Positions 1-15,294 of a stretch of DNA of 64,000 nucleotides are shown piece after piece (the stretch's first letter is position 1; each line of letters opens with the position of its first letter). Under the pieces are notes generated by a model. The model worked only from the letters and a program-made list of their open reading frames with translations. It searched no databases and had not been told where the DNA came from. The position numbers were made by a program, and so were the translations under genes. The stretch comes from Dehalococcoidia bacterium (lineage in GTDB: Bacteria; Chloroflexota; Dehalococcoidia; Lucifugimonadales; UBA3495): assembly GCA_965220055.1 (NCBI GenBank), contig CBDCPE010000003.1, positions 19,374 through 83,373 on the forward strand, given 5' to 3'.

Positions 1-122
1 CGGCGATTACCGACGAGGTGCGCCGCCCGCCTTTCTATTGGTCAGCGTCGGTCGACTGGTCGGGGCCGGGCAACCGCTCGGTGCTATAATCCCCGAACTC
101 CCATTGGTGTTACGGTGCGACC

Positions 123-1178
123 ATGCGCTTCGGCCATTTTTTCTACCCCATGAAATTCGACGACTCGCACGACGACGTCGCGATACAGGAATGCCTGGAC
201 GAGGCGGTGCTGGTCGAAGAGTTGGGGTACGACGCCATCTGGTTCGCGGAGCACTACTTCACCGGCGAGTGTGTGTACGGCGATCCGCTGGTGTTCGCCA
301 GCGCGGTGGCGGTGAAGACAAGCAGAGTGCTGCTGGGGTTCGGCATCATCGAGCTACCGCTGCACAATCCGGTACGGGTCGCGATGCAGACCGCGCTGCT
401 GGATAACCTGAGCCAGGGCCGGCTGGTGGTGGGCACCGCCAAGGGTTCCAACTACAACGCCTTCGAGTACGTCGGGTTCGGCAGCGACCCGGCGCTGGGC
501 GCGGCCCAGATGGAAGAGGCCGAGGCGCTGATGGTCACGGCGTGGACGCAGGATGACGTCGACTTCCGAGGGGAGCACTATCGGGTCGCATTCCCATCGG
601 TGCGTCCGCGGCCCTACCAGAAACCCCATCCGCCGCTGGCGCGGGCTTGCATCAACCGCGAATCGATAATGGAGATGGCGCGCATCGGCCGGCCGATCCT
701 GCTGCGGGGCCGGTCCACCACCAGCACGGCCGCCGACATCGCCCTCTATCGCGACACCATGGCCGAGGCCGGATTCGATGAGGAATCCATCGAGCGCAAC
801 TTGGAACAGATCTGGATCTGGCGTGAGATCCACCTGGCCGAAACCGACGACCAGGCCATGAACGAGTTTCTGCCGGCCAACCTGGAGGCGTACTCGACTA
901 TCCAGGGCTATCGGGAAAGGTGGAACCCCAAGGAATTTCCCATGTCCCACCAACCGCCGCCCATCCAGAAAGACGCCTACGGGGAACGACCCAACCCGGA
1001 CGCGCCGGAGAACCTCGTGGGCAGTCCGCGACGGGTTGCCGAGCAGTTAGATGAGATGCGCAGCCTGGGCATTCGGAATCTCATGCTGACCAATCGAGGG
1101 CTGATGTCGGCAGAGGCAACGCGGCGCTCGCTGAAACTCTGCGCCGAACAGGTGATGCCGAAGTTCCGCGATGGCTAG
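123..1178 (+). CDS. LLM-class (luciferase-like) flavin-dependent oxidoreductase
   Basis: N-terminus MRFGHFF..DEAVLVEELGYDAIWFAEHYF..GFGIIELPLHNPVRVA is typical of the bacterial luciferase-like monooxygenase fold. Long ORF in the coding frame of a high-GC genome. Confidence 0.85.
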   Translation: MRFGHFFYPMKFDDSHDDVAIQECLDEAVLVEELGYDAIWFAEHYFTGECVYGDPLVFASAVAVKTSRVLLGFGIIELPLHNPVRVAMQTALLDNLSQGRLVVGTAKGSNYNAFEYVGFGSDPALGAAQMEEAEALMVTAWTQDDVDFRGEHYRVAFPSVRPRPYQKPHPPLARACINRESIMEMARIGRPILLRGRSTTSTAADIALYRDTMAEAGFDEESIERNLEQIWIWREIHLAETDDQAMNEFLPANLEAYSTIQGYRERWNPKEFPMSHQPPPIQKDAYGERPNPDAPENLVGSPRRVAEQLDEMRSLGIRNLMLTNRGLMSAEATRRSLKLCAEQVMPKFRDG

Positions 1179-1275
1179 CGGAGCCCGCCGATAGCCAAAC
1201 CCGGACCTCGCGCCGAGACCCGATAACCTTTCAAGAGCGTTCGACGGCGACCCACAACCGCCGAGGAGGATCGTC

Positions 1276-1665
1276 ATGGAAAAGATCAGGAACAATCATC
1301 CGAATATCGCGCCGTCCGGTTCGACCTTCAGCCGGAGCGTAAAGGTCGGTAACCTGCTGTTCATCGCCGGCTGCACGGCTCGCGGCACCGGCGCGCAGGG
1401 TCAGTCCATGGCCGACCAGTTGCGGGTCACGCTGGACCGCATCGCGGGTATCGTGAGGGCTGAGGGCGGCGCGCCTTCCGACATCGTGAAGATCACGACC
1501 TTTGTGACCAGTGTCCCGGCGTGGCAGGAGCATCGGGAAGCGCAGGAAGCGATGTTCGCCGAGTATTTCGAGGGTCAGTATCCCGCCAACACCCTGGTGG
1601 AGATCACGGCCCTGGCCGAGCCCGGGCTGGACGTCGAGATCGAGGCCATCGCCGAGATCAGCTGA
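1276..1665 (+). CDS. RidA/YjgF/L-PSP family protein
   Basis: 129 aa. Pattern VGNLLFIAG..ITTFV..YPANTLVEITALAEPGLDVEIEAIA is typical of the RidA family. AGGAGG-like RBS upstream. Confidence 0.8.
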   Translation: MEKIRNNHPNIAPSGSTFSRSVKVGNLLFIAGCTARGTGAQGQSMADQLRVTLDRIAGIVRAEGGAPSDIVKITTFVTSVPAWQEHREAQEAMFAEYFEGQYPANTLVEITALAEPGLDVEIEAIAEIS

Positions 1666-1686
1666 TAACGGCTCTGCCGCCCCGCG

Positions 1687-2274
1687 TCAGGCCGGGCGGT
1701 GGAACTCCTCCACCTGTTGCAGGTAGTTGCGCAGCAGGTCGTGTCCCACCGTGGTCATGATCGACTCGGGGTGGAACTGCACGCCTTCCACGGGCAACTC
1801 CTTGTGGCGCACGCCCATGATGAGGCCGTTGTCCGTCCAGGCGGTGACTTCCAGGAAGTCTGGAAGCGTTTCGGGGTAGATGACCAGGCTGTGGTAGCGG
1901 ATGCCCTCGAAGGGGTTGGGCAGCCCGGCGAAGACCCCTTTGCCATCATGGTGGATCAACGACGTTTTGCCGTGGCGGATCTCACCGGCCCGATCCACCG
2001 TCGCGCCGTAGGCGTCGCCGATGCACTGGTGGCCGAGGCAAACGCCGAGCACCGGCAGCTTTGGGCCGAAGTGCCGGATGACGTCGTTGGAGATGCCGGC
2101 CTCCCGTGGGGTGCAGGGGCCCGGGGACACGACGATGCCCTCGGGCTGCATGGCTTCGATGTCCTCTATGGTGGTCTTGTCGTTGCGGATCACCTCAACC
2201 TCGGCGCCCAGCTCGCAGAGGTACTGGTAGAGGTTGTAGGTGAAGCTGTCGTAGTTGTCGATTAGCAGTAGCAT
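1687..2274 (-). CDS. trpG: Anthranilate synthase component II (glutamine amidotransferase)
   Basis: MLLLIDNYDSFTYNLYQYL..SPGPCTP..LGVCLGHQ..FHPES class-I GATase motifs. Same strand as trpE and downstream of the Trp T-box. Confidence 0.85.
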   Translation of the reverse strand: MLLLIDNYDSFTYNLYQYLCELGAEVEVIRNDKTTIEDIEAMQPEGIVVSPGPCTPREAGISNDVIRHFGPKLPVLGVCLGHQCIGDAYGATVDRAGEIRHGKTSLIHHDGKGVFAGLPNPFEGIRYHSLVIYPETLPDFLEVTAWTDNGLIMGVRHKELPVEGVQFHPESIMTTVGHDLLRNYLQQVEEFHRPA

Positions 2275-2714
2275 CAGTACAGTTCCACCAGTTCCAGCCA
2301 GTTGCCGTCGGGGTCCTGGCAGTAGGAGGCCTTGCGCACCAGGTTGCCACCGTCGTCGTACATCGGCACCGGCGGCGTGGGATAACTGAGGCCACGGTTA
2401 CGGGTGTTCTCGTAGAAGGCGTCGATGTCCTCGACGTGGAAGGCCAGGTGGGCGGCGCGCACGTCGTTCTTGTCGAAGTCGGCGTAGCTACCTTCGGGGT
2501 TGATGTACTGGATCAGCTCCAGCTGGTGACCGTCGCCCATGTCGAAGAACGCGCCCTTGATGTGGGTGTCGGGGAACCCGAGCAGCGTAGTCGGGAACTC
2601 GCCGGTGCGCTCGGTGCGCATGGTCAGCGTGAGGCCCAGCACGTCGGAGTAGAAGGCGACCGCAGCCTCCAGGTCCTTGACGATGAAGCCGGTGTGGAAG
2701 AATGACTTGAGCAT
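2274..2714 (-). CDS. VOC (glyoxalase/bleomycin-resistance/dioxygenase) family protein
   Basis: The internal start MLKSFFHTGFIVKDLEAAVAFY.. has a GGAGG RBS 7 nt upstream. The stop overlaps the trpG ATG (ATGA). The longer 187-aa form is unlikely. Confidence 0.75.
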   Translation of the reverse strand: MLKSFFHTGFIVKDLEAAVAFYSDVLGLTLTMRTERTGEFPTTLLGFPDTHIKGAFFDMGDGHQLELIQYINPEGSYADFDKNDVRAAHLAFHVEDIDAFYENTRNRGLSYPTPPVPMYDDGGNLVRKASYCQDPDGNWLELVELY

Positions 2715-2829
2715 TTTGGCCTCCGGATTGTTTTTGGATGGCTGTACAGGAAACTGGTCCAAGATGCCGTAAGGCACTTCATCATTCTGGGCAGCAGCGT
2801 AGCCCATGTCGCACCGGGCTAGAACCCCG

Positions 2830-3459
2830 CTACTCATCCAAAAGAGTTACCTCATAAGAGCCAGGTCCCTTGATGTATTGACGTACCATGTCCAGAGGCA
2901 CATTGTATTCATGAGCCTTCGTAACGGATACCGGTATCGATATTTCGACTTCGGTGAACGACTTGGCCCAATGGGAAATATCCGGAGGGCAGATGCCAAG
3001 AAGGTGTTTTCCTTCAACCATTGACCTGTTAACCTTTTCCTTAAAGATTTGCTCAGTTGGGTCCATTAATCCCATCTCAACGTAAACCTGCTTGAGATCG
3101 TGCTGGGTCATGACCAAGCGTTCCTCGGAGTCAACAGAATCTGCGGTAACCAATTCACGGGGATGAACCCGGTACAGGCCCTCAACAAACAGAAAATCGG
3201 CAAGGTCCCTCCCTTCACGCCAGCTACCCCTCGGTGAACTCGGTTTGACGTAAACCACAAAGTCAACCTTGGCGGCGTAGCTATAGACCATAGGTCCAAC
3301 AATGACATCACCAGGCTTGGCAGGGTCTTCTTTCCAAAATTCTAATTGTCCCACCACATCGGTCGGTCTAATCCGGTGTCTATGCAAATGTTCCCAAACC
3401 CCGGCCGACCTCATTACCGCCCCCCTAAATTCAGCCGATCCGGTCAGGAAAATATCCAT
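2830..3459 (-). CDS. Hypothetical protein (209 aa), lower-GC insert inside the trpE..trpG transcription unit
   Basis: Clean ORF with no competing frames. Composition is visibly more AT-rich than its neighbours. I recognise no motif. Confidence 0.6.
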   Translation of the reverse strand: MDIFLTGSAEFRGAVMRSAGVWEHLHRHRIRPTDVVGQLEFWKEDPAKPGDVIVGPMVYSYAAKVDFVVYVKPSSPRGSWREGRDLADFLFVEGLYRVHPRELVTADSVDSEERLVMTQHDLKQVYVEMGLMDPTEQIFKEKVNRSMVEGKHLLGICPPDISHWAKSFTEVEISIPVSVTKAHEYNVPLDMVRQYIKGPGSYEVTLLDE

Positions 3460-3771
3460 AAGCTAACCCCCGATGAACAAAGCAGTACCGAGAACCACTC
3501 GCACATCATACCGCACAGTCGTTATCGCGTACATGAGACTCCGAGCTGGCAACAGGGCAGTCGAATATTACGCAATCGGTATCACTACTACTTCGGTTTA
3601 TAACTGGTGCACATGAAGTATGGTAAATCGGACGGTAAATGCCCGCAGCCAGCCATGTCGCTGGCATAAATCGAAGTCCGTAAAGGCTAATTGGCAACCA
3701 TCTGGGACACAGACATGCGGTTCCAGAATGTTAGCCGCCTGCCAGGTCAAGTAAAATACGATTGCCTGTTG

Positions 3772-5232
3772 TCAGGCGGCGCCCTCAGCCATGTCAATGG
3801 CGCGCATCATCGCACCGGACTTGTGGAGGGTCTCCATGTATTCGTCCTCGGCCACGCTGTCGGCGACCACGCCGCCGCCGGCCTGGACGTACATGATGCC
3901 ATCCTGGAAGACCCCGGTGCGGAGGACGAGGGCGGTGTCCATGTTGCCGTTGTAGCTGAAGTAGGCGACGGCGCCCCCGTAGGGACCGCGACGTTCCTGC
4001 TCCACCTCGGCGATGATCTCCATGGCGCGTATCTTGGGCGCGCCCGACACGGTGCCGGCGGGGAAGCAGGCTCGCAGGGCGTCGTAAGGCGTCATGTCGG
4101 GCCGCAGCTGGCCTTCGACGTGGGAAACGAGGTGCATGACGTGGGAGAAGCGTTCGACGTCCATGTACTGGGTCACTTTGACGGTGCCGGGCACGCTGAC
4201 GCGGCCGATGTCGTTGCGGCCCAGGTCCAGCAGCATGATGTGCTCGGCCCGCTGTTTCTCGCTTCCCTTCAGTTCCTCCTCCAGGGAGGCGTCCTCGGCA
4301 GGCGTCTGGCCGCGCGGGCGGGTGCCGGCGATGGGGTGGGTAGCGACGGAGCCGTCGTGAACTGTGGCCACGGTCTCGATGGCGGCTCCCACTATCTGGA
4401 AACCGTTGAGGTCGAGGTAATACATATAGGGCGACGGGTTGCTGCCACGCAGGGCGCGGTACACCTGGAACGGGTGGGCGTCGGTCCTCCGGCTGAACCG
4501 TTGGGAGTTGACCACCTGGATGACGTCGCCGGCGTAGATGTACTCGATGCACTTTTCGATCACCGCCTCGTACTCCGGCACGGTGAAATTCGACTGGGTC
4601 TCGCCGCCGACCGGGAGTGAAGGCGTTGCCAGCAGCTCGGGCGGCAGTTCCAGCGGACGGGAGAGGCGGTCCACCATGCGCTCGATCTTGGCGGTGGCCG
4701 CATCGTACGCTTCAGCGATGTCTCCGCCGTCCAGCCGGGCATGGCTGACGACCTTGATGTCGTGGCGGAGATGGTCGAACACCAGCAGGGTGTCGGTGAA
4801 CATAAAGACCGATTCGGGCAGGCCCTGGGGGTCGACTTCGAGCATGGGCACGCGGGGCTCGAAGTAGTGCACCGCGTCGTAAGCGACGTAGCCCACGCCG
4901 CCGCCGTGGAAGGGAGGTAGACCTTCGACCGAGATCAGTCGGAAGGAGTCCATCTCGTTTTGCACGAGGGTGAGCGGGTCGACCGCGCCCGAGGGCTGGT
5001 CGGCGCCGGTGCTGAAAACGTCATACGGCTCGGTGCCGATGAAGCTGTATCGGCCGATGCGCTCGCCGCCGGCCACGGATTCCAGCAGGAACGAGTAGGG
5101 CGGTCGGGCGACCTTCAGGTAGGCCGACACGGGGGTTTCCAGGTCGGCGTTAATGGTGCGGTAGACCGGGCACAGGTTACCCTGGCCGGCCAGCGTGCGG
5201 ACTTGGTCCAAAGTTGGGTAGTACATTGTCAC
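3772..5232 (-). CDS. trpE: Anthranilate synthase component I
   Basis: 486 aa with the chorismate-binding enzyme pattern (LLESVAGGERIGRYSFIG .. GAPKIRAMEII..E...RGPYGGAVGYF). Preceded by a UGG-specifier T-box. Confidence 0.9.
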   Translation of the reverse strand: MTMYYPTLDQVRTLAGQGNLCPVYRTINADLETPVSAYLKVARPPYSFLLESVAGGERIGRYSFIGTEPYDVFSTGADQPSGAVDPLTLVQNEMDSFRLISVEGLPPFHGGGVGYVAYDAVHYFEPRVPMLEVDPQGLPESVFMFTDTLLVFDHLRHDIKVVSHARLDGGDIAEAYDAATAKIERMVDRLSRPLELPPELLATPSLPVGGETQSNFTVPEYEAVIEKCIEYIYAGDVIQVVNSQRFSRRTDAHPFQVYRALRGSNPSPYMYYLDLNGFQIVGAAIETVATVHDGSVATHPIAGTRPRGQTPAEDASLEEELKGSEKQRAEHIMLLDLGRNDIGRVSVPGTVKVTQYMDVERFSHVMHLVSHVEGQLRPDMTPYDALRACFPAGTVSGAPKIRAMEIIAEVEQERRGPYGGAVAYFSYNGNMDTALVLRTGVFQDGIMYVQAGGGVVADSVAEDEYMETLHKSGAMMRAIDMAEGAA

Positions 5233-5267
5233 GATATATCATCCATTGGGTTCAGCGAACACGGTCA

Positions 5268-5526
5268 TAGAAAAAGCCCGTCCCCTGCGGGACGAGCCTT
5301 ATGGCCGCGATGCCACCCTGCATACGGTGTTCTAGGGGCAGTTAACGTTGCCCATGCGGCCCGTCCTACTTGGCCCCGCATCAAGCGCGGAGTGACTTCC
5401 TTTCGGCGGGAGGCTCCGGGGTCCATTCAACGTCTGCGCCTGGCGCCGGTTCGCAGCTAACCCGGCTCTCTGTGCCTCGCTGGACGCGTACTAGTCCCGT
5501 TCACAGCATTTGGGTATTCGGATGTG
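5268..5526 (-). promoter_or_regulatory. T-box riboswitch leader, Trp (UGG) specifier, controlling trpE
   Basis: Minus-strand elements: AGUA and AGAGA stem I elements, specifier loop GAA-UGG-A, F-box-like CGUUA, T-box GGGUGGCAUCGCGG, then a terminator hairpin. Confidence 0.75.
5271..5298 (-). terminator. Intrinsic terminator of the Trp T-box leader
   Basis: Minus strand reads GGCUCGUCCCGCAGGGGACGGGCUUUUU: a GC hairpin plus U5, directly after the T-box sequence and about 35 nt before the trpE ATG. Confidence 0.7.
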
Positions 5527-5533
5527 CGCGTTA

Positions 5534-5562
5534 ATTGTATGGCGGGCGGTTAGGGGCGTCAA
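5534..5562 (-). promoter_or_regulatory. Sigma70-type promoter of the T-box leader
   Basis: Minus strand reads TTGACG, a 17-nt spacer, then TACAAT, about 7 nt before the start of the conserved leader. Confidence 0.55.
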
Positions 5563-5669
5563 CGACCCGAAGTCGCAAGATGGACAAGGTCGACTACTGG
5601 AAGCATAATCTCGGTGTACCAGCAAACGCTGTGGAAAGCAGCGTACTTCTTGAGCAATGAAGGCATTCC

Positions 5670-6047
5670 GTGACCCAACTGCTATCCTACCGGGCCATTT
5701 TCGCCGACGCTCGTGAAGTGCATGCGCAAGCCATCGAGCGGCTGTCGCACGGCGACGTGCGTGATGCGGCGGAGAAAGCCTGGTGCGCAACCAAACGCGC
5801 CACCGACGCACTGATCCTGGCCCGCACGGGAGAAGAGCCGGCAACCACCGCGCTTACGTCAAATGGTCTCGATGACTTGGCCAGAATGGACCCAGCGGCT
5901 AAGTCGCTCGTCGGTCGCTATTACAGTCGGATCAGCCAACTGCACGGTGCGTGCTTCTACAACGGTATCTGCAACTCCGAAACGGAACGGCGCATCCGTG
6001 AAACTGCCGATTACATCGACGACGCCGAACGATTGGCCGGCACCTAA
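5670..6047 (+). CDS. Small helical HEPN-superfamily-like (PaREP1-type) protein
   Basis: 125 aa with a GTG start. AAEKAWCATKRATDALI ... LHGACFYNG matches the PaREP1/HEPN-like pattern as I remember it. A divergent paralog lies at 37302-37796. Confidence 0.55.
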   Translation: MTQLLSYRAIFADAREVHAQAIERLSHGDVRDAAEKAWCATKRATDALILARTGEEPATTALTSNGLDDLARMDPAAKSLVGRYYSRISQLHGACFYNGICNSETERRIRETADYIDDAERLAGT

Positions 6048-6050
6048 GCG

Positions 6051-6306
6051 GGTAACGTGGCCCATGCGGCCCGGCCTACCTGGCCTCGCGTCCACAGTGT
6101 GGTAGCGGCCTTTCGGCGGGCGGCTCCGGGGTCCATTCGGCGCCTCTGCGCCTGGAGGCGCCGCTGTTCGCAGCTAAGCCGAGCCCGGCTCTCTGTCCCG
6201 TTGCGTGCGAAACACACTACCGGCCGCTCCTCGTGTGCCCTTCGGGCGCGGCGCTGCACGCTGGACGCGTACTAGTCCCGTTCACAGCATTTGGGTATTC
6301 GGATGT
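6051..6306 (-). promoter_or_regulatory. Truncated second copy of the Trp T-box leader (stem I, UGG specifier, F-box; no antiterminator or terminator)
   Basis: Direct repeat of 5341-5526. The first ~50 nt of the leader are identical, GAA-UGG-A is retained, and stem I carries about 60 extra nt. Similarity ends 3 nt from the stop of the convergent ORF 5670-6047. Confidence 0.6.
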
Positions 6307-6315
6307 GTGGCATCA

Positions 6316-6344
6316 ATTGTATGGCGGGTGGATGGAAGCGTCAA
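6316..6344 (-). promoter_or_regulatory. Duplicate sigma70-type promoter
   Basis: Minus strand reads TTGACG, a 17-nt spacer, then TACAAT, the same hexamers and spacing as at 5534-5562. Confidence 0.5.
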
Positions 6345-6382
6345 CGATTAGGCGACCAGTTAAGATGCCTCGGCAATGGGCG

Positions 6383-7078
6383 CTATTTGATGCCCGCTAT
6401 CAACTCGCCCAAGACGTTCAGAAATTCGGGGGAATAGTCCTCATCAACATGATTGTTGTTCCATAAACCGGAACGGAACACACGCTCTCTGCCCGAATTT
6501 ACTCCCAACCATCGTGAGGTCGGAGGATCAATTGGCTCGTGAGCATAACCACTCAGCAAGGCGATGGCATTACGTTCCACACACGCCCGCTTGCTGTCGG
6601 GACCTGGATCGTCTGGTACTGAAAGAACCAGGAACGGCATTGCACCAATGTAGCGACTAACTTCGACCTCGGCAGGACGCTCTGTTTGGCGAACGTCACG
6701 TGGAGCGCTGGAGCCCTTTCCCCAACTGTCTACTGGTTCGACCGAGCCGGCCCGCATCATCGCCTCCCCTACCAGGAGGCGGAAAATCGACCCTCGGTGA
6801 TTGCCACCAGGCGGCCGCACCGTCCCCCGATGTTGTGCCAAGCGGTTCCACAGTTTCGTGCGCGATCTGGTAGTCAGCGCGTGGGTTCCTATGCGGACAA
6901 CCCTGGGCCCGTCGCCGCTGCGAAAACGATCCTCGCCGTTCTCGAAGAAGAAATAGACACCGCGCAATGGCCAATTCATTCGACCACTAGATTCTGCGAG
7001 CGTGCTTTTGCCGCCAATGCTGCGCTCCAGCTCATCCAGATGACCATAGAACCTGACGACATCGTCAACCCGGTTCAT
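6383..7078 (-). CDS. GIY-YIG-like nuclease family protein (uncharacterised subfamily)
   Basis: 231 aa. GVYFFFE ... RVVRIGTH ... LWNRLAQHRG ... GNHRGSIFR ... VERNAIALLS resembles the GIY / YIG / Arg / Glu-Asn core order. Confidence 0.6.
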   Translation of the reverse strand: MNRVDDVVRFYGHLDELERSIGGKSTLAESSGRMNWPLRGVYFFFENGEDRFRSGDGPRVVRIGTHALTTRSRTKLWNRLAQHRGTVRPPGGNHRGSIFRLLVGEAMMRAGSVEPVDSWGKGSSAPRDVRQTERPAEVEVSRYIGAMPFLVLSVPDDPGPDSKRACVERNAIALLSGYAHEPIDPPTSRWLGVNSGRERVFRSGLWNNNHVDEDYSPEFLNVLGELIAGIK

Positions 7079-7088
7079 TTTCCGACAG

Positions 7089-7520
7089 TCATTTCAATTG
7101 CTTGCCGATTGGCAGGCCCTGCATCGGCACGCTGACCTTGGCGAATCTGCGTCGCAACCACGGTTCGAGATATTCGCGATACCGGGTGCCCGCCAAGATA
7201 ACTATTTCATTGGTCTCCGGCAACATCAAGCCCATCTGTTTCGTGACGCGGTCAGCCCACAGCCGTCTGTCGGCGACACCCATGTTGTTCAAGGTCTTTT
7301 CGTACGGGGCAAGAACTTGATTTGGTCTAACCAAACCATGCTCAGCTGACAAGATGAACCAAGGCGAGCCTGACTTCAGCACAAAGTCACGGGCTTTGTT
7401 GAACCAAGCTGATGTGTACAGTTCCTGAGCCGGACACGGGTATGGGTATTTCTGCGAAACGCAGGAAACCAGGTAGGTTGATTTTGCTGGCATGACTTCC
7501 TGGTCCAGACCGGTGTCCAA
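7089..7520 (-). CDS. DUF6884-like protein
   Basis: 143 aa. YLVSCVSQK..ELYTSAWFNKAR..WFILSAEHGLV.P..PYEKTL..RR.WA..ILAG..Y...L matches my memory of the DUF6884 pattern. Lies 10 nt upstream of the GIY-YIG-like gene. Confidence 0.55.
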   Translation of the reverse strand: MDTGLDQEVMPAKSTYLVSCVSQKYPYPCPAQELYTSAWFNKARDFVLKSGSPWFILSAEHGLVRPNQVLAPYEKTLNNMGVADRRLWADRVTKQMGLMLPETNEIVILAGTRYREYLEPWLRRRFAKVSVPMQGLPIGKQLK

Positions 7521-7550
7521 TTAATTGGCGATAAGGGTTTTCTCCGCGGG

Positions 7551-8519
7551 TTACGGCGTCAGTAGTATCTTGCCGGTGGTCTCCCTGCCCTCCAGGCGGC
7601 GGTGGGCCTCGGCGGCTTCGGCCAGGGGGAGGTTGAGGGTGACTTTGAGCCTGATTTCTCCGGACTGGACCCAGGACAAACACTCCTCGGCGCGTTGCAC
7701 CAATTCGTCACGGGTGGCAGTGTAGTCGCCCAGGCTGGGACGGGTGAGGAACAGAGAACCGTTGCGCAGCATGCCGGAGTCCACCGGACCCACGGGCCCG
7801 CCAGCCTGGCCGTAGAGCGCCATGCAGCCGCGCCGTCCCAGGACGCGCAGGCCTTTCTCGAAGGTGGTGGCGCCTACTGCGTCGTAAATGATCTTGACGC
7901 CCTCGCCGTCGGTCATCCGGCGTACTTCTTCCTCGAAATCCTGCCGGGTGTACAGGATGACGTCGTCGGCGCCGGCGTTGCTGGCGAGCGCGGCCTTGTC
8001 GTCAGTGGAAACGGTGGTGTACACGTGGAGGCCCATGCGCTTCAGCATCTGGATGAGGAGAAGGCCCATGCCGCCGGCGCCGGCGTGGACCAGGGCGCGC
8101 TGGCCGGCCTGCAACGGCACGATGTCGTTGACCAGGAAGTGGGCGGTCATGCCCTGGAGGAGGGTGGCCGCACCGGTATCAAAGTCCATCTCGTCGGGTA
8201 TGCGGACCAGCAGCCATGCGGGGACGGCCTGCTGCTCGGCATAGGAGCCGGTGTGCATGGCGTAGGCGACCCGGTCGCCGACGCTGACCTCGGTAACGCC
8301 CTCGCTCACGGCAATCACCTCGCCGGAAGCCTCACGGCCGGGTGTCCAGGGGAAGGCGGCGGGCGGGTTGGTGCCCTTTCGGCTGGAAACGTCGGTGTAG
8401 TTGACGCCGATGTTGCGGATGGCCACGACCGCTTGGCCGGGACCGGCGGTTGGCTCGGGCATGTCCTCGTATTTGAGGACGTCGGGGCTGCCGGTTTCGT
8501 AGGCGCGGATGCCTTTCAT
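7551..8519 (-). CDS. NADPH:quinone oxidoreductase / zeta-crystallin-type MDR
   Basis: The start MKGIRAY has a GGAGG RBS. Shows the MDR pattern and a GAGGMG-type nucleotide-binding motif. The 17 extra N-terminal codons of the longest ORF are a translated repeat element. Confidence 0.85.
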   Translation of the reverse strand: MKGIRAYETGSPDVLKYEDMPEPTAGPGQAVVAIRNIGVNYTDVSSRKGTNPPAAFPWTPGREASGEVIAVSEGVTEVSVGDRVAYAMHTGSYAEQQAVPAWLLVRIPDEMDFDTGAATLLQGMTAHFLVNDIVPLQAGQRALVHAGAGGMGLLLIQMLKRMGLHVYTTVSTDDKAALASNAGADDVILYTRQDFEEEVRRMTDGEGVKIIYDAVGATTFEKGLRVLGRRGCMALYGQAGGPVGPVDSGMLRNGSLFLTRPSLGDYTATRDELVQRAEECLSWVQSGEIRLKVTLNLPLAEAAEAHRRLEGRETTGKILLTP

Positions 8520-8540
8520 GGTATTACCTCCAAAGTTCTG

Positions 8541-8617
8541 GATTCCCGCTTTCGCGAGAATGACGGACATGGTTACGGAATGACGAAAGGGGTCAGGGAA
8601 TGACGGAAATGGTCAGC
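8541..8617. repeat. REP-like hairpin followed by a 3 x 20-bp tandem repeat
   Basis: Imperfect palindrome ATTCCCGC-TTTC-GCGAGAAT, then GAATGACGGACATGGTTACG / GAATGACGAAAGGGGTCAGG / GAATGACGGAAATGGTCAGC at 8558-8617. Confidence 0.6.
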
Positions 8618-9917
8618 CACCCAGGACGGATGCCATTCCGGTAACGTTTGCGATTTCAGCGATGCCGCGGAAGCTGCCCACGGCCTCTTCGATGTGGTCC
8701 GCGGGCAGGATGTAGCGGGTGCAGTAGAGGAATTTGGCCTCGAGTTCTTCGGGATCCAAGGGCATGGACGGCGAGCCACGAGGGTGGTCGATGCGGTGGC
8801 GCAGGGTGCGGCCGTCGTTGAGGGTGACCGCGACCTCGGCCGGGTTGAGGGCCAGCGGTGACGCTGGCAGGGTGGCTTCCACCGACACCCGCTCCATCAT
8901 GGCGCGGACGCCCTCGTCCCGGACCGCCGTGTCGGAGAAGAAGTTAATCAGGGGACCACCGTGGCAAAGAGTGGCGGCGGTGATGAACCCGATGGACCTG
9001 CGGGCTTGCCACCCGTCCACCGGAAGCACGTGGGGCATGCGCTGGGTTGCTTCGGCAGTCACTCCGACGTGGACGCTGGTAATATCGGCGGGAGCAAAGC
9101 GATGCAGCTGGGCGAGACCCAGGATGGCGTCGATCACGCTATGGCCGGCGGGGTCGCAAGGGTAGAGGCGAATGGTTATACCGGGGTCTGTCAGCCGCCA
9201 GTGCTTGCCCAAATGGGCAACGCTGTCAGAGAAGGCATTGACGTTTTGTGGAGTACCGACGATTCCCTCGGCGGCGGTCAGCGCGGCCATGACGCCGTGC
9301 ATCGCGGACCGGCCTTCGGAAAGGGCAGCAGCACCGGCAGAACCGTAGTCTATTCCACCAGTGACCGCGTCCGCAGCCAGGCCAACGGCGTGTGCCATTG
9401 CTTCGACGTCCAACCCGAGCAGCATGGCCGACGCCGTTGCCGCGCCGACTGCGCCGGCCGACCCGAGCGTCGACTCGGACGCAGACAGGCGGGCAGCGAC
9501 CTCGCATCCAACGGCGAATGCGTCCAGGACGGCACGTCCGGAGAACCCGTGCATCTCTCCAATGGCCATCACCGCTGGAAACACGGCTGCCGTGCAGTGC
9601 GCACCGCTGTCGACGGTGTTGTCGTCAAAATCCAGCAGCCGCACGAGGGTGCCGTTGACCAGCGACGCATATACCGGGGACGTGCGCATCCCCATGCCGA
9701 TGATGGTGCTGCGTCCGTTGCCGCCCATCTCGCGAACCACGCGGGCCAGGGCGACACCCTCGGGATGGGCCGCGCCGGCGAGAGCGGCGCCGGCGGCGTT
9801 GAGCATCAGCTCGCGGCACGACTCGGCGACGGTCAGCGGCACGGGAATGCTGGATTGGGCGACGCCGGCGGCGAATTGGGCGATCTGGTTAATGGAGTTT
9901 GGGTCGCTGCGATTCAT
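8613..9917 (-). CDS. MmgE/PrpD family protein
   Basis: 434 aa, Ala/Gly-rich helical pattern typical of the 2-methylcitrate dehydratase-like family. Substrate not assignable. Confidence 0.8.
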   Translation of the reverse strand: MNRSDPNSINQIAQFAAGVAQSSIPVPLTVAESCRELMLNAAGAALAGAAHPEGVALARVVREMGGNGRSTIIGMGMRTSPVYASLVNGTLVRLLDFDDNTVDSGAHCTAAVFPAVMAIGEMHGFSGRAVLDAFAVGCEVAARLSASESTLGSAGAVGAATASAMLLGLDVEAMAHAVGLAADAVTGGIDYGSAGAAALSEGRSAMHGVMAALTAAEGIVGTPQNVNAFSDSVAHLGKHWRLTDPGITIRLYPCDPAGHSVIDAILGLAQLHRFAPADITSVHVGVTAEATQRMPHVLPVDGWQARRSIGFITAATLCHGGPLINFFSDTAVRDEGVRAMMERVSVEATLPASPLALNPAEVAVTLNDGRTLRHRIDHPRGSPSMPLDPEELEAKFLYCTRYILPADHIEEAVGSFRGIAEIANVTGMASVLGG

Positions 9918-9991
9918 GGTGAGGCAAGGATACCGACGGCCGGCCGATGGCGCAACGCGGGGCAGCGAGGGTCGCGGTGTATAATGCGGCC

Positions 9992-10197
9992 GTGGACAGC
10001 AGGGAGGTGATGCGACGGCTGCGGGAAGATGGCTGGTACGTTCACCACATCAACGGATCACATCACCAAACGGATCACATCACCAGATGAGACACTCAAC
10101 AAAGCGTGGAACGACGTCAGTACCGCATCCGCGGAAGGACGTCCCGATAGGAACGCTGAGAAACATTGAAAGGCAGTCAGGAGTCAGGTTACGGTAG
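9992..10197 (+). pseudogene. hicA: hicA toxin gene disrupted by a 17-bp tandem duplication
   Basis: (V)DSREVMRRLREDGWYVHHINGSHHQ, then a frameshift to a TGA at 10088-10090. Removing one 17-bp unit restores ..GSHHQMRHSTKRGTTSVPHPRKDVPIGTLRNIERQSGVRLR*. An alternative ATG at 10010 has a GGGAGG RBS. Confidence 0.75.
10052..10085 (+). repeat. Perfect 17-bp tandem duplication (AACGGATCACATCACCA x2)
   Basis: Read directly from the sequence: 10052-10068 is identical to 10069-10085. Confidence 0.9.
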
Positions 10198-10222
10198 CGA
10201 TAGCGGCAAAGGAACGGCTGAT

Positions 10223-10609
10223 ATGGAACGTACATTCGTAGCTTTGGTTCACAAAGACCCTGACAGCGACTATGGGGTCAGTTTCCCTGATCTGCCCGGT
10301 TGCATCACTGTGGGCAGCACGCTGGAGGAAGCCAGCGAGATGGCACGCGAGGCGCTGGCGCTGCACTTGGAAGGAATGGCAGTTGATGGAGAGTACATTC
10401 CCCCACCATGCTCCGCGGATGATGCTCTGGTACATGAAGACGCTTTCGACGCCATTGCACTGATTGTTGTGAAGACGCTACCGGAGCGGACGGAAGAGGA
10501 GGCGCGGGCGGCGTTTGAGGAGTTCATGTCCTCTGAGTACGGTCAGGAATTCATGCGGGAAACAGCGCCGGACCCGGAGCGGGACGAAGTTGCGCTGCCG
10601 GCAAGTTAA
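10223..10609 (+). CDS. hicB: HicB family antitoxin
   Basis: MERTFVALVHKDPDSDYGVSFPDLPGCITVGSTLEEA..EALALHLEG is a typical HicB N-domain. Lies directly downstream of the hicA remnant. Confidence 0.8.
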   Translation: MERTFVALVHKDPDSDYGVSFPDLPGCITVGSTLEEASEMAREALALHLEGMAVDGEYIPPPCSADDALVHEDAFDAIALIVVKTLPERTEEEARAAFEEFMSSEYGQEFMRETAPDPERDEVALPAS

Positions 10610-11064
10610 TACGGGGCCTGCGACTGCTGTCCTATTACGGAGGATCAGCAGTTTAGGCACATGACAAATCTTATCGAGGCTTATGATCAATACAATCGCA
10701 TCGTGAACCGGGTCCGAATCAATCAAATAATGGAGATGGCGGGACAACAGAATGCCTGTGGAAGCCGTATGGGTCACAATAGGCCAAATCTGGTAATCAC
10801 CATGGCATCCGTCGTTTGCCTTGCTGCGATGGGAAACCGCATCGGGCTGGAAACCGTGGCCGGGGGTTGAGGAAAGTATGGGCCTGGTTGGGAAGCCGGT
10901 CTCGCCGTCGCGACTTTCACCATTTTCTTTGCGATGGCGCGTTGGTATGTATCTCGCGCCGGCTGGCATTGAGCTGGATATTCACAGCCAATTCGCTGTT
11001 TCTGTTCTTTGTGACGGTGATTGAAACTGCGACCTCATTTCACCAGATTTAGGAGAGTGGGATT

Positions 11065-12315
11065 ATGATGGCGAACGCGAACGGTTCCAACTCGGTGGAA
11101 GAGCGGCAGTACGATGTGGCCATCGTGGGCGGCGGGATAATTGGGTTGTCCACGGCGATGCAGCTGCTGGAACGCTCACCGGCCCTGAGCGTGGCGGTGA
11201 TCGAGAAAGAGGAGCAGTTGGCCCAGCACCAGACGGGTCACAATAGCGGCGTCATCCACTCCGGCATCTACTATCGGCCCGGTTCGTGGAAGTCGCGCTT
11301 CTGCGTCGGCGGGAAGGACCGCCTAATTGCTTTCTGCGATGAAAACGAGATCGAGTACGATCCGTGCGGCAAGGTGATCGTGGCAACCCATGAAAGTGAA
11401 TTGGGGCGCCTGGATGACTTGTACGAGCGGGGCGTTGCCAACGGTGTGCCAGACCTCGAGATGGTGGGTCCCGAGCGGTTGAAGGAGATCGAGCCGCACA
11501 CCATCGGTGTCAGGGCGTTGTGGGCTCCGCACACCGGTATCGTCGACTATGTGCGTGTCGCAAACGCCTACGCGGGCAAGTTCCAGTCGGCCGGCGGCGA
11601 CATTTTCACCGGAGCGGCGGTGATACGGTCCCGGCAAACCGGCGCTGGCGCCGCCCTGGAGACGAAGCGGGGCGCTTTGCAGGCGCGCCACGTGATCAAC
11701 TGCGGCGGCCTGTACGCCGACAAGCTGGCGCGGATTATGGGCGAAGAAACCGACGTGCGCATCATCCCGTTCCGCGGGGAGTACTACAAGCTGGTCGAGT
11801 CCAGCGAAGACCTGGTGAAAGGGTTGATCTATCCGGTGCCCGACCCGCGGTTCCCGTTCCTGGGCGTGCATTACACGCGGAACATCCACGGCTACGTTGA
11901 GGCCGGCCCCAACGCGGTCCTGGCGTGGGCGAGGGAAGGTTATCGCAAGAGCAACATCAGCTTCGGAGAAACGGCCGGCGTAATCACCTTCCCAGGTTTT
12001 TGGAAGATGACCGCACGACACTGGAAGACGGGTATGCAGGAAATGCACCGGTCCTACCGTAAGTCGGTTTTCGTCAACGACCTGAAGAAACTGATCCCTG
12101 ACATACGCGCTGAGCACCTGGAACCGGGCGGTAGCGGCGTGCGCGCACAGGCCGTGTCCTCGTCGGGCGCGATACTCGACGACTTCCACATCCTGAGAGG
12201 CCAGCGGGCGCTGCACGTGCTGAACGCGCCGTCGCCGGGGGCGACCTCGTCCCTGGCCATCGGCGAATACCTGACGGACATGGCGGTCGAGGACTTCGGC
12301 CTAGTCGTTCGCTGA
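11065..12315 (+). CDS. lhgO: L-2-hydroxyglutarate oxidase/dehydrogenase (FAD)
   Basis: YDVAIVGGGIIGLSTA..HQTGHNSGVIHSGIYYRPGS.K is typical of the LhgO family. GGAG RBS. Confidence 0.8.
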   Translation: MMANANGSNSVEERQYDVAIVGGGIIGLSTAMQLLERSPALSVAVIEKEEQLAQHQTGHNSGVIHSGIYYRPGSWKSRFCVGGKDRLIAFCDENEIEYDPCGKVIVATHESELGRLDDLYERGVANGVPDLEMVGPERLKEIEPHTIGVRALWAPHTGIVDYVRVANAYAGKFQSAGGDIFTGAAVIRSRQTGAGAALETKRGALQARHVINCGGLYADKLARIMGEETDVRIIPFRGEYYKLVESSEDLVKGLIYPVPDPRFPFLGVHYTRNIHGYVEAGPNAVLAWAREGYRKSNISFGETAGVITFPGFWKMTARHWKTGMQEMHRSYRKSVFVNDLKKLIPDIRAEHLEPGGSGVRAQAVSSSGAILDDFHILRGQRALHVLNAPSPGATSSLAIGEYLTDMAVEDFGLVVR

Positions 12316-12536
12316 GCATCCTGACGGCTGGCTTCCAACGTGGCCCGTCGGCGCACACGGGCGCTCCCGGTGGTGTGACCGCGAACCGATCCGCCTGTTA
12401 CCCAATACGGGTTTCTGCTATACTTACGGCCTAACCGACGAACGCCATTGCACAACGAGAACCGTGCCGCCGCTGGCAGTAGCCTGCGGGGGCGATTTTT
12501 CGGTTTAGTTTCTAAATTTTCCGGGAGTACAGAACA

Positions 12537-13823
12537 ATGCCGGCTTACGCCGTAATCGGGGGACAATGGGGTGACGAGGGCAAGGGTAAAGTTATTGACT
12601 ACCTTGCGGGCCAATCCGATTGCGTAGTGCGTTTCGCTGGCGGAAACAACGCCGGACACACGGTGGTGAACGAGCGCGGGCGATTTCAGTTGCACCTGGT
12701 TCCCTCGGGCATCTGCTGGCCTGGCGTGACCGGTATCATCGGCAATGGCGTGGTTGTGAATCCCGAAGTTCTGCTGGGAGAGATCGCTGGACTGCGGGAA
12801 CAGGGTATCGACACGGACCAGTTGTTTGTGAGCGATCGGGCCCATGTCATCATGCCCTATCACATTCTGCTTGACGAGTTGCAGGAGCAGGCACGTGGCA
12901 GCGGCGCCATCGGCACCACCGGACAGGGAATCGGGCCGGCCTACGTGGACAAAGCCGCCCGCGATGGGATTCGCGTGGGGGAGCTGCTCGACACCAAGCA
13001 TCTGCCGGACCGGGTCAACACGGCCGTGGCGATGAAGAACCGTGTCATTACCGGCGTTTTCGACGGCGAGCCCGTGGACGCCGCGGCGGTGCTGTCCAAG
13101 TGCCAGGAGTGGGGTGAAAAGCTGCGGTCCCAGGTGCGCGCCACCGAGCAAATGGTGCAGGACCTGCTGGAACAAGGCAAACGGGTGCTTCTGGAAGGGG
13201 CGCAGGGAACGCTGCTGGATGTCGATCACGGTTCTTATCCGTACGTCACGTCGTCCTCACCGTCCATCGGCGGCGCGATCACCGGACTGGGCATCAATCC
13301 TCAGTCCATTAAGGGCGTGGTCGGGGTATTCAAGGCGTATTCGACGCGGGTTGGCGGCGGGCCCATGCCCACCGAGATGCACGACCAGGCGGGCGAAGAC
13401 TTGCGTGAAAAGGCTCACGAGTACGGCACCACCACTGGCCGGCCGCGGCGGGTTGGTTGGTTCGACTCTGTAGCCGCCCGTTACAGCCATCAGATCAACG
13501 GATTCACGGGCATGGTGATCACGCGCCTGGACATCCTGGATGGGATGGCAAACGTGAAAATCTGCGTGGGCTACCGGGCGGACGGCAAAGATTTGGACCG
13601 GTTCCCTGCAAACACCGCTCTGCTGGAGCGTTGCGAGCCCATTTACGAAAAAATGCCCGGGTGGATGGATCCGACGGCAAGCGCCACTCGATCGGAACAG
13701 TTGCCGGCAAATGCGCTGGCATATGTGAGGAGAATCGAGGCGCTCGTAGGCTGCGATGCTCAGATCATTTCCACCGGTCCGAGTCGCGAAGAAACCATAG
13801 CAATCGAGCAAATCATCCGCTAG
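12537..13823 (+). CDS. purA: Adenylosuccinate synthase
   Basis: GGQWGDEGKGKVIDYL..RFAGGNNAGHT..GTTGQGIGPAY..TTTGRPRRVGWFD are signature motifs. Confidence 0.95.
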   Translation: MPAYAVIGGQWGDEGKGKVIDYLAGQSDCVVRFAGGNNAGHTVVNERGRFQLHLVPSGICWPGVTGIIGNGVVVNPEVLLGEIAGLREQGIDTDQLFVSDRAHVIMPYHILLDELQEQARGSGAIGTTGQGIGPAYVDKAARDGIRVGELLDTKHLPDRVNTAVAMKNRVITGVFDGEPVDAAAVLSKCQEWGEKLRSQVRATEQMVQDLLEQGKRVLLEGAQGTLLDVDHGSYPYVTSSSPSIGGAITGLGINPQSIKGVVGVFKAYSTRVGGGPMPTEMHDQAGEDLREKAHEYGTTTGRPRRVGWFDSVAARYSHQINGFTGMVITRLDILDGMANVKICVGYRADGKDLDRFPANTALLERCEPIYEKMPGWMDPTASATRSEQLPANALAYVRRIEALVGCDAQIISTGPSREETIAIEQIIR

Positions 13824-13908
13824 CCGAATTAACATTTCCGTAATAACATATCGCTGCGGTACTGCCCCGCAAAAGGGGGCAAAATAACTGACTGCAGAGG
13901 AGATTGTT

Positions 13909-14385
13909 ATGTCCACCAATAACGCAACTCAGGCAGATACGTCGATCTTTGGGCGTTTCTTGGTGCGGTTCACAGACGAATTCTACCTGGTGTTCCGCCT
14001 GATATTTGCCTTCATAGTAGCCTTGCACGGGGCACAGAAAGCATTCCTGATGTGGGGATTTCCTGCGAACCATCCACTGGGCGCCAGGGTCGACATCGCC
14101 GGCTGGGTTGAGCTTATCTCGGCGTTGCTCATCGCCTCGGGAATTTTCACCAGGCTGGGCGCCGGAGCATTGTGCGTGACGATGGTAGTGGCGTACTTCA
14201 CGGTACACAGTGGAGGCGTTGCGCCACATATCTTCCCGAATCCTGCCGGCGACATGGGCTCCGCATTCGGCGCTCACGGCGGCGAGATCCCGATCCTGTG
14301 GTTCGCCATTGCCGGCATAATCGGCGTTCTGGGCAGCCGCAAGTACGGCTTGGAAAGGCTGATACTCAAGAAGGAAATCCTCTAG
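13909..14385 (+). CDS. DoxX family membrane protein
   Basis: 158 aa, four hydrophobic segments, DoxX-like pattern (..LHGAQK..). Confidence 0.75.
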   Translation: MSTNNATQADTSIFGRFLVRFTDEFYLVFRLIFAFIVALHGAQKAFLMWGFPANHPLGARVDIAGWVELISALLIASGIFTRLGAGALCVTMVVAYFTVHSGGVAPHIFPNPAGDMGSAFGAHGGEIPILWFAIAGIIGVLGSRKYGLERLILKKEIL

Positions 14386-14454
14386 GAAATCCGCGACACC
14401 AACCTCACACTGACCGCCCGGCGTCGCGAGAGCGACGCCGGGCAAAGAGTAACT

Positions 14455-14688
14455 ATGATGCAGCAGCAAGCAGCGCGTTTCGGTATTTACTTCAACGCTT
14501 CCCAGAACCAGGTCGTTCGTATAAATTCGCCGTACTGGTTCCCGCCGGAACCGGAATGGCAGAAATTGACCGGCGAGGTGAACGCCACACTGCTGGACCT
14601 GCGTCGGATGATCGGGGAACAGGACCTGTCCTCAGATTCGGACGGAGTAACCTGGACTACCCTCCCGCTGCTGGACGAAGACAGCTAG
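14455..14688 (+). CDS. Hypothetical protein (77 aa)
   Basis: ORF only, no motif. Confidence 0.4.
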   Translation: MMQQQAARFGIYFNASQNQVVRINSPYWFPPEPEWQKLTGEVNATLLDLRRMIGEQDLSSDSDGVTWTTLPLLDEDS

Positions 14689-14694
14689 CCGGTC

Positions 14695-15219
14695 ATGGCT
14701 TGGGAGGAGCCGGCCACGCCTACGGAGCCGGTTACCGATCCCGAAGAATACCCCCGTCCGCCAGGTTGGCGTGGGCGGATGATGGCCGCTAACCCCACGC
14801 AGGCGCGACGTTGGATGCGCTGGGCCTGGGTATGCGGCTTGATCTGGTGGGTTTGGACTATCGGAGTGCTGGTGGTGTGGATGGCGGCCCCAGTGCTGGC
14901 AGTGTCGGAAGCGGAAGGCAGCATACCGGCGATACCCCCGGCAAGACTGCTCATGTACTACGGGATAGAGGGTTTCGTGCTGGCGCTGCTGGCGCTGGGC
15001 GTGATGCGTTACTGGAGACCAGCGGCGATCCTGTTGGCGATCGGATTCGTCGTGTCCCGGATCGTGCTAATCATGCTCGGGTTAATAACGCTGGACGGTT
15101 TTCGCGATGCGATATGGCTCGCCATCTACGGAGGACTGCTTTTCGCCTTCGTGAGGGGAGTGCAGGGAGCCTTCAGCTACCATTGGTTCACTCGGCTGCC
15201 GGGACCGGGTGGACGATAG
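14695..15219 (+). CDS. Hypothetical membrane protein
   Basis: About four hydrophobic helices after a Pro/Glu-rich N-terminus. Confidence 0.55.
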   Translation: MAWEEPATPTEPVTDPEEYPRPPGWRGRMMAANPTQARRWMRWAWVCGLIWWVWTIGVLVVWMAAPVLAVSEAEGSIPAIPPARLLMYYGIEGFVLALLALGVMRYWRPAAILLAIGFVVSRIVLIMLGLITLDGFRDAIWLAIYGGLLFAFVRGVQGAFSYHWFTRLPGPGGR

Positions 15220-15294
15220 CGGGCCGACGCGAAATTAAAGAGGGCGGGTTTGTCACCCGCCCTCTTCGCTGTTGGTGGCTTTCGGGTGGTTGGT

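Follow-up and report, generated by a model that had tools for sequence, protein, structure and literature searches.

The 64,000-nucleotide (nt) stretch of contig CBDCPE010000003.1 from a Dehalococcoidia bacterium (GCA_965220055.1), called the window here and used for all position numbers, carries a cassette of two genes on its minus strand, between a zinc-type alcohol dehydrogenase (ADH) gene and the leader of trpE. The first gene, A, covers 7089–7493 if it begins at an ATG (134 amino acids, aa) or extends to 7520 if it begins at a TTG (143 aa), and encodes a DUF6884 protein (PF21818; PDC-M57A) that is a predicted DNA binder and base reader. The second, B, covers 6383–7078, begins at an ATG and encodes a 231-aa GIY_YIG_3 protein (PF26468; PDC-M57B, PDLC04714), a putative divergent GIY-YIG-type nuclease. 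Together they match PDC-M57, a candidate phage-defence system of the PADLOC collection. A preliminary description of this DNA had reported two co-oriented genes 10 nt apart; the two open reading frames (ORFs) were found at these coordinates on the minus strand, and the motifs quoted for them are all present.

The PADLOC search that had been proposed with that description recovered both components, with matches of near-full length. Residues 14–143 of A align with positions 3–130 of the 138 in the PDC-M57A profile hidden Markov model (HMM; PDLC04712, E = 1.3e-36), and residues 1–228 of B align with positions 1–232 of the 238 in the PDC-M57B profile (PDLC04714, E = 7.4e-79). The arrangement is also the same – A then B, adjacent, on one (minus) strand, with a gap of 10 nt. 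Judged by these matches and by gene order, the locus is a genuine copy of PDC-M57, which makes the find a further member of a catalogued candidate system and not new in itself. The models are those of PADLOC-DB v2, and the system comes from the candidate set of Payne et al., in which PDC systems are defined as embedded in BREX, DISARM or type I restriction–modification (RM) systems and were predicted computationally, without assay (10.1101/2024.01.29.577857). The window copy differs from the PADLOC system in nothing structural; it differs in being in the Dehalococcoidia, outside BREX, DISARM and RM, and beside toxin–antitoxin (TA)-like genes and a T-box. The preliminary description named no function for either family, and a literature search found no publication on ‘PDC-M57’ or ‘PF26468’ and no assay of PDC-M57.

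Both genes are confirmed as real genes, not chance ORFs, because A scores far above the cut-off for DUF6884 (PF21818, E = 2.9e-48, 163.9 bits against a gathering cut-off of 30) and B has 5974 homologues at E ≤ 1e-3 in a 90%-clustered collection. The ORF of A had been given as 143 aa; the ORF stands, and its translation start is more probably the ATG at 7493, for a protein of 134 aa. A Shine-Dalgarno (SD)-like AGGAAG at 7496–7501 (minus strand), likely the ribosome-binding site of A, precedes this ATG, while the TTG at 7520 has no SD. Homologues align from about residue 8–16 onward (143-aa numbering, as for all residues of A below), residues 1–8 are disordered in the AlphaFold2 (AF2) model with a predicted local distance difference test score (pLDDT) below 50, and one public gene call is of 134 aa. 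The spacer between A and B (7079–7088, minus strand; CTGTCGGAAA) is 10 nt long and includes a weak GGA(A) SD. A promoter/terminator scan found no such site between the genes, which implies that A and B are co-transcribed and translationally coupled. The scan detected no promoter belonging to the cassette itself.

The composition of the cassette is foreign to the surrounding genes. The lower-GC patch of the preliminary description is evident both in total GC content (0.554, versus 0.656–0.663 for the flanking ADH, PrpD and trpE genes) and in GC content at third codon positions (GC3; 0.64 in A and 0.60 in B, versus 0.78–0.87 in the flanking genes). The upstream boundary of the insert, placed by the ORF map and by comparison with cassette-free relatives, is a 30-nt segment on the minus strand (7521–7550) from the stop codon of the ADH gene (7551–8570, minus strand, co-directional with the cassette) to the first possible start of A. 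The downstream boundary, also placed by comparison with relatives, is a segment of about 35 nt (6348–6382, minus strand) between the stop codon of B and a truncated second copy of the trpE T-box leader.

A is unambiguously a DUF6884 member by profile match, as the preliminary description had proposed from a sequence pattern. It has both of the motifs by which the Pfam curators define the family (PMC11701544): CxxxK, which is C20-V-S-Q-K24, and LSAxxG, which is L57-S-A-E-H-G62. An alignment of 49 homologues shows no variation at C20, K24 and S58, and conservation of at least 90% at L57, A59 and G62. The core of the AF2 model (pLDDT 88.4) is predicted to be a YaaA-like ‘cantaloupe’ alpha/beta fold; the top match of the model in a Foldseek search of the PDB was YaaA (5caj, E = 2.7e-3, probability 1.00, template modelling score TMq 0.53), and weak profile matches were found to YaaA and to DpdC of the Dpd 7-deazaguanine system. 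YaaA of E. coli is a peroxide-stress DNA-binding protein, and DpdC converts preQ0-DNA. A shares the cantaloupe core with YaaA, DpdC and the Bacillus subtilis protein YfjM, and has CxxxK and LSAxxG as in DUF6884. It differs from YaaA and DpdC in being about half their size (134–143 aa versus about 260–310 aa), with a TMq to YaaA of only 0.53, and in being paired with a putative nuclease and not located in a dpd cluster or a peroxide-stress regulon.

YfjM, itself a DUF6884 protein, was enriched on abasic and ribonucleotide DNA baits (PMC10220248). The Pfam curators, who propose a repair role for DUF6884, have an AlphaFold3 (AF3) model of YfjM that shows a flipped base (PMC11701544). The YaaA fold match, the relationship to DpdC, the YfjM pull-down and the YfjM model suggest that A may bind DNA and flip a non-canonical nucleotide, and so be a base reader.

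For B, a precomputed PF26468 (GIY_YIG_3) match exists for exactly this protein and for 120 of 120 listed homologues. A local Pfam copy, which does not hold the PF26468 model, assigned B to no family, and NCBIfam gave nothing useful. The AF2 model of B (pLDDT 94.9, predicted template modelling score, pTM, 0.92) predicts an N-terminal helix, a long beta-hairpin (40–50 and 58–65), helices at 76–84, 98–110 and 127–145, a strand at 148–153 and a helix at 163–175. A candidate catalytic set can be picked out from these elements: Y42 (in GVY), R62–G64 (RIG), R79, H83 and E168. The residues G40, Y42, R62, G64, R79, H83 and E168 are all invariant or at least 90% conserved. The equivalent of GIY would be G40-V-Y42, on the predicted strand 40–50, in which G40 and Y42 are invariant. 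R79 is invariant, H83 and E168 are at least 90% conserved, and R79 and H83 align with the LxxRxxxH of UvrC and URI domains; E168 is equated with the metal-binding Glu by motif resemblance only (ERNAIALL versus LENxLI). The order of these candidate elements, a GVY strand, a hairpin, an xIG strand, an Arg/His helix and a later Glu helix (‘ERN’), would correspond to the GIY/YIG/R/H/E order of the GIY-YIG nucleases of the PF01541 clan (the UvrC N-terminal domain, the URI/I-TevI type and Eco29kI/Cfr42I).

The association of the two genes was followed in 80 loci from GTDB species genomes, which were retrieved via B alone and span more than eight phyla (Dehalococcoidia, Alpha-, Beta- and Gammaproteobacteria, Thermodesulfobacteriota, Acidobacteriota, Planctomycetota, Nitrospirota, Actinomycetota and Spirochaetia). 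A DUF6884-type gene, recognised with HMMs for two partner forms, is adjacent to B and co-directional with it in 70 of the 80, so the co-occurrence that the preliminary description had asked about is found. The short form of A, as in the window, is 11–45 nt upstream of B in the homologous loci. The long form (about 225 aa, beginning ‘IQCAGxK’) is directly downstream of B and has weak DUF6884, YaaA and DpdC scores. One Thermodesulfobacteriota locus (L011, 5451–7409) has both, a short DUF6884 gene upstream and a long DUF6884-like gene downstream of B. The remaining 10 loci are L060, with a winged helix-turn-helix-YaaA-like gene downstream of B and a type IV HNH restriction endonuclease (REase) gene upstream; two that are cut by contig ends; one with a B pseudogene; and six with B alone. 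The identities of A and of B to the window copies co-vary (Pearson r = 0.68, n = 49 loci).

Fusions of A and B occur in both orders and are common among representatives at 50% identity. Protein length and the place of the B domain within the chain pointed to A-B fusions of about 360–410 aa; in the two of these that were scanned (P0133 and P0140) no DUF6884 match was found in the N-terminal region. Two loci (L033 and L062) have in-frame open reading across A and B. The other arrangements are B-A’ (P0147, P0125 and P0130), X-A-B (P0142, P0153 and P0154), A-B-DUF7662 (P0157 and P0198) and triple fusions of a 5’-3’ exonuclease (with flap endonuclease (FEN) N-terminal and SAM-fold domains), DUF6884 and GIY_YIG_3 (P0239, 722 aa; P0265, 731 aa). 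As a genomic pattern, single-chain fusions in both orders are strong evidence that A and B act together physically, and the two proteins would be expected to form a complex.

DUF7662 (about 72 aa) is a recurring third module, attached to either end of B or of A-B (P0134, P0129, P0126, P0157 and P0198), whereas Symbiobacter (L086, 10442–10729) encodes it in a gene of its own, two genes downstream. In L074 the DUF6884-like partner carries a fused DUF7669. Two of the B homologues (L059, 6001–6693; L069, 6001–6714) are probable pseudogenes, each with one in-frame stop, and A in L069 is reduced to a C-terminal remnant.

The B family is large and widespread, with 2048 clusters at 50% identity (E ≤ 1e-3) across bacteria and haloarchaea. 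Its conservation is high, about 57% identity between Chloroflexota and Proteobacteria. Its presence is patchy: 9 of 25 species of the window’s genus have it, as does one of 16 other genera of the order, with one copy per genome. Copies within the genus are 56–70% identical and at different chromosomal sites. They are as divergent as copies from different phyla, which argues for repeated horizontal acquisition and not for vertical inheritance of a core function. On these comparisons the cassette is horizontally acquired and accessory. A housekeeping role was rejected because the pair is patchy within the genus; both families match, the two genes co-occur, and no housekeeping-pathway assignment was found for either.

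A phage-borne element was likewise rejected, as B had no match among 50,697 phage genomes. B has no PHROG family, while A has relatives there. Ten plasmids or megaplasmids carry B – one from Deinococcus, where it is paired with DUF6884, and the rest from haloarchaea. On Haloarcula taiwanensis pNYT1 (L115, 6001–6693) and other haloarchaeal megaplasmids, homologues of B with about 42% identity have as neighbours a DUF955 (ImmA/IrrE-like) gene and an HNH endonuclease gene in convergent orientation.

A conserved third gene was considered and rejected, since the genes nearest to the pair differ widely among the 80 loci; PIN toxins, the most frequent family, account for only 6 of 147 neighbours. The others include transposases, an integrase, phage capsid, head and terminase genes, WYL, AbiEi, AbiEii, DUF4238, HNH and type IV REase genes and other PDC candidates; a DISARM DrmD helicase gene is among the neighbours in L073. 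In the island of L089 the pair follows DUF4238 and HNH genes and is followed by genes for an EEP nuclease and an integrase; transposase genes and an AAA_15/21 ATPase gene are close by. In Silicimonas algicola (CP034588.1; L084, 6984–8998) A and B are flanked on one side by a Terminase_4 small-terminase gene of full length (152 aa) and on the other by a 5’-truncated paralogue of it (99 aa), the two terminases being 69% identical over 86 aa. The arrangement resembles either an insertion that duplicated part of its target or a scar left by recombination, within a prophage-like region.

In the window the gene order along the minus strand is PrpD-like, zinc-type ADH, A, B, truncated T-box copy, PaREP1/HEPN-like (on the opposite strand), T-box leader and trpE. 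The T-box leader upstream of trpE (5285–5513, minus strand) is of the Trp type and matches Rfam with 62.5 bits (E = 7.5e-13), which is below the gathering score of 93; at gathering thresholds no T-box is found in 1–16000, and it is seen at the E-value threshold only. Sequence comparison identified a partial direct duplicate of this leader at 6048–6347, with blocks 79–100% identical, and Pfam identified a PaREP1/HEPN-like gene between the two copies (5670–6047, plus strand). The placement of the pair beside a duplicated T-box and HEPN-like locus in the preliminary description was therefore essentially right.

The ADH stop and the start of trpE are 2318 nt apart here, 613 nt apart at the empty site of a congener (G007), about 840–1290 nt in several other congeners and over 1.5 kb in the remaining ones. 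The match to the empty site breaks off precisely at the ADH stop and is picked up again within the T-box leader. At the same site in a close relative (L088), a VapBC-like pair precedes A, which is intact although no gene was called for it, and B comes next. Another genome of the genus (G015; L126, 749–1164) has an orphan DUF6884 gene there, 56% identical to A; between it and the T-box, 32 nt of the A-stop/B-start junction are left as a remnant. B has thus been cleanly deleted, and this genome has no other copy of it. These two arrangements and the variable distance show that accessory and TA-like genes gather at the ADH–trpE site, a small hot spot, and that the cassette can decay there. A HicB-like antitoxin gene (10166–10609, plus strand; PF15919, E = 3.4e-19) is about 2.6 kb from the cassette. 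The HicB and PaREP1-like genes here, and the PIN genes in relatives, mark a neighbourhood rich in TA-type genes.

The reading that we favour, at about an even chance, is that A and B are a sensor–effector pair for modification- or lesion-directed restriction of phage or other foreign DNA, in the manner of type IV restriction. The cassette is an autonomous operon of two genes that was acquired horizontally and inserted at a variable site between the ADH gene and the trpE T-box leader, and its products would form a sensor–effector complex. A, with a positively charged cleft and a CxxxK/LSAxxG pocket, would bind DNA and flip a hypermodified or damaged base into the pocket. B, the sole candidate catalytic effector of the pair, would be recruited or licensed by A and cut the DNA nearby. 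The trigger would be a base missing from host DNA, which would give the distinction between self and non-self. No methyltransferase gene was found in the cassette or its immediate flanks, so a trigger base that the host does not have would be the simplest way for the host to be spared.

The proposed logic, a reader of modified bases plus a nuclease and no cognate methyltransferase, is that of type IV restriction (McrA/ScoMcrA, GmrSD/BrxU and SRA-HNH), and a gene for an HNH or type IV REase directly precedes the pair at some loci. PDC-M57 differs from these systems in that the predicted fold of its reader is YaaA-like and not SRA, DUF262 or YTH-like, and in that reader and nuclease are usually separate polypeptides. 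The A-B fusions are the reason to regard the two as a cooperating sensor–effector pair and not as a toxin and its neutraliser. Of the roles offered in the preliminary description, a small defence module agrees with the listing of the pair as a PADLOC candidate. The fusions, and the lack of matches in phage genomes, speak against the addiction module and the selfish nuclease cassette. An anti-phage role would be part of the restriction reading.

A number of results weigh against this reading. The second motif of B, the equivalent of YIG, is R62-I/V-G64, where an invariant Arg replaces the canonical Tyr. An hhalign comparison of B with 22 PF01541 domains (UvrC N-termini and URI-type domains from relatives of the window) was weak (P = 0.017, probability 2.6%; P = 0.41 for A against the same domains as a control); within that weak overall score, the register was the expected one, with RGVYFFFE on GIY, RVVRVG on YIG and LWxRLxQHRG on LxxRxxxH. 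A Foldseek search with the B model, which is of pLDDT 95, gave no match below E = 1 in the PDB or BFVD. An HMM of 49 B homologues found no GIY-YIG chain among PDB sequences, only chance matches (ORF134/2pem, E = 0.07), and a Pfam scan of the 49 aligned homologues at E ≤ 10 found no GIY-YIG family. Beyond the fold of B, there are six loci with B alone within 6 kb (about 8% with no recognisable A nearby), many of the nearest neighbours in the 80 loci are plain housekeeping genes, and in the window only TA-like genes, and no known defence system, adjoin the cassette. The literature search found no phage-defence phenotype for PDC-M57, a cold-seep study having tested other PDCs only. The YfjM pull-down and the FEN-type exonuclease fusions point as readily to repair.

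The GIY-YIG likeness of B noted in the preliminary description is thus borne out by the Pfam name and not by the fold checks made here, which were weak or negative. B also differs from the known GIY-YIG nucleases in large insertions in the hairpin and core, including an invariant GGNHRGSIFR loop, in an N-terminal helix of about 35 aa, in showing no detected sequence or Foldseek similarity to solved GIY-YIG structures, and in needing a separate reader protein, as it has no attached DNA-binding domain of its own. Pfam curation and motif order are the main grounds for concluding that B is probably a very divergent GIY-YIG-type protein, with large insertions and Arg in place of the second Tyr. That it would act as a nuclease is suggested by the register with UvrC/URI domains and the conservation of the residues concerned.

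Accessory DNA repair is a serious rival, possible but on balance rather unlikely. A would flip a lesion (an abasic site, an embedded ribonucleotide or an oxidised base), B would incise beside it, and a FEN-type exonuclease, either the host’s or the one fused in some relatives, would remove the downstream flap, in a form of alternative excision repair. UvrC, the best known bacterial GIY-YIG nuclease, is a repair enzyme, and YaaA, the structural relative of A, belongs to the peroxide-stress response. The exonuclease-DUF6884-GIY_YIG_3 fusions would suit such a pathway, as would the many loci among housekeeping genes – here the cassette is co-directional with metabolic genes and has no detected promoter of its own. 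The enrichment of YfjM on abasic and RNA-base baits (PMC10220248) and the proposal of the Pfam curators (PMC11701544) agree with this. A repair function is harder to reconcile with the strong patchiness within a single genus, with congeneric copies as divergent as those of different phyla, which indicate repeated horizontal acquisition, and with the foreign composition of the cassette. Decay is also tolerated, by deletion of B in G015 and by probable pseudogene formation in L059 and L069, and the pair is found in mobile-element, TA and defence-gene contexts.

A toxin–antitoxin or abortive-infection module, in which B would be a DNA-damaging toxin restrained by A and freed when a phage infects the cell or the element is lost, is quite unlikely. 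The islet is rich in TA-type genes (PaREP1/HEPN-like and HicB here, with a PIN toxin gene directly upstream in relatives), the layout is compact, two-gene and translationally coupled, and the retention of A in G015, where B is reduced to a 32-nt junction remnant, is the order of decay expected for an antitoxin and its toxin. Against this, toxin and neutraliser should be separable, and A and B are repeatedly fused in both orders. At least six loci have B with no A within 6 kb, A has invariant enzyme-like motifs and a predicted DNA-binding fold and not the features of a labile antitoxin, and A is upstream of B in the main form while its counterpart is downstream in the long form.

A selfish, free-standing homing-endonuclease cassette that cuts cassette-free alleles is very unlikely. 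In its favour, homing endonucleases classically have the GIY-YIG fold, the cassette here was inserted precisely between a stop codon and a leader, the Silicimonas pair lies between terminase paralogues and prophage head or capsid genes flank the pair in a few loci. Against it, B is absent from the phage genomes and from PHROG families, each genome has a single copy, insertion sites are unrelated between loci, no intron or intein context was seen, and the whole of B with its obligatory partner is unusually conserved between phyla, unlike the fast-evolving homing endonucleases with their modular tails.

Within the favoured reading of a sensor–effector pair, a bolder proposal can be made, which we hold tentatively and consider rather doubtful: YaaA/DpdC-like DUF6884 proteins would be an unrecognised class of flipped-base readers that license a divergent GIY-YIG nuclease, and PDC-M57 would be a new and widespread family of modification-dependent restriction systems. 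In view of the kinship to DpdC, its targets might be 7-deazaguanine-type modifications or other hypermodified phage bases. The DUF6884 reader domain may be reusable with other effectors, as in the FEN- and DUF7662-containing fusions. If A is a flipped-base reader that directs B, it would represent a new reader fold for modified or damaged DNA, and together with B it would make a compact and programmable ‘reader plus nickase’ that might serve to map DNA modifications. The B family is of note in any case, being large, widely spread and extraordinarily conserved for an accessory module. Comparative work has several handles: two partner forms, fusions in both orders, FEN fusions, an orphan A, solo copies of B and an empty-site polymorphism within one genus.

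A further patch of low GC content is found on the other side of trpE. An ORF of 209 aa (2830–3459, minus strand; GC 49%, GC3 0.53) is between trpE and the glyoxalase/trpG genes and has no Pfam, PADLOC or NCBIfam match. In L088, which does not have this ORF, trpE is followed directly by the glyoxalase gene. The ORF is a second accessory insertion next to trpE.

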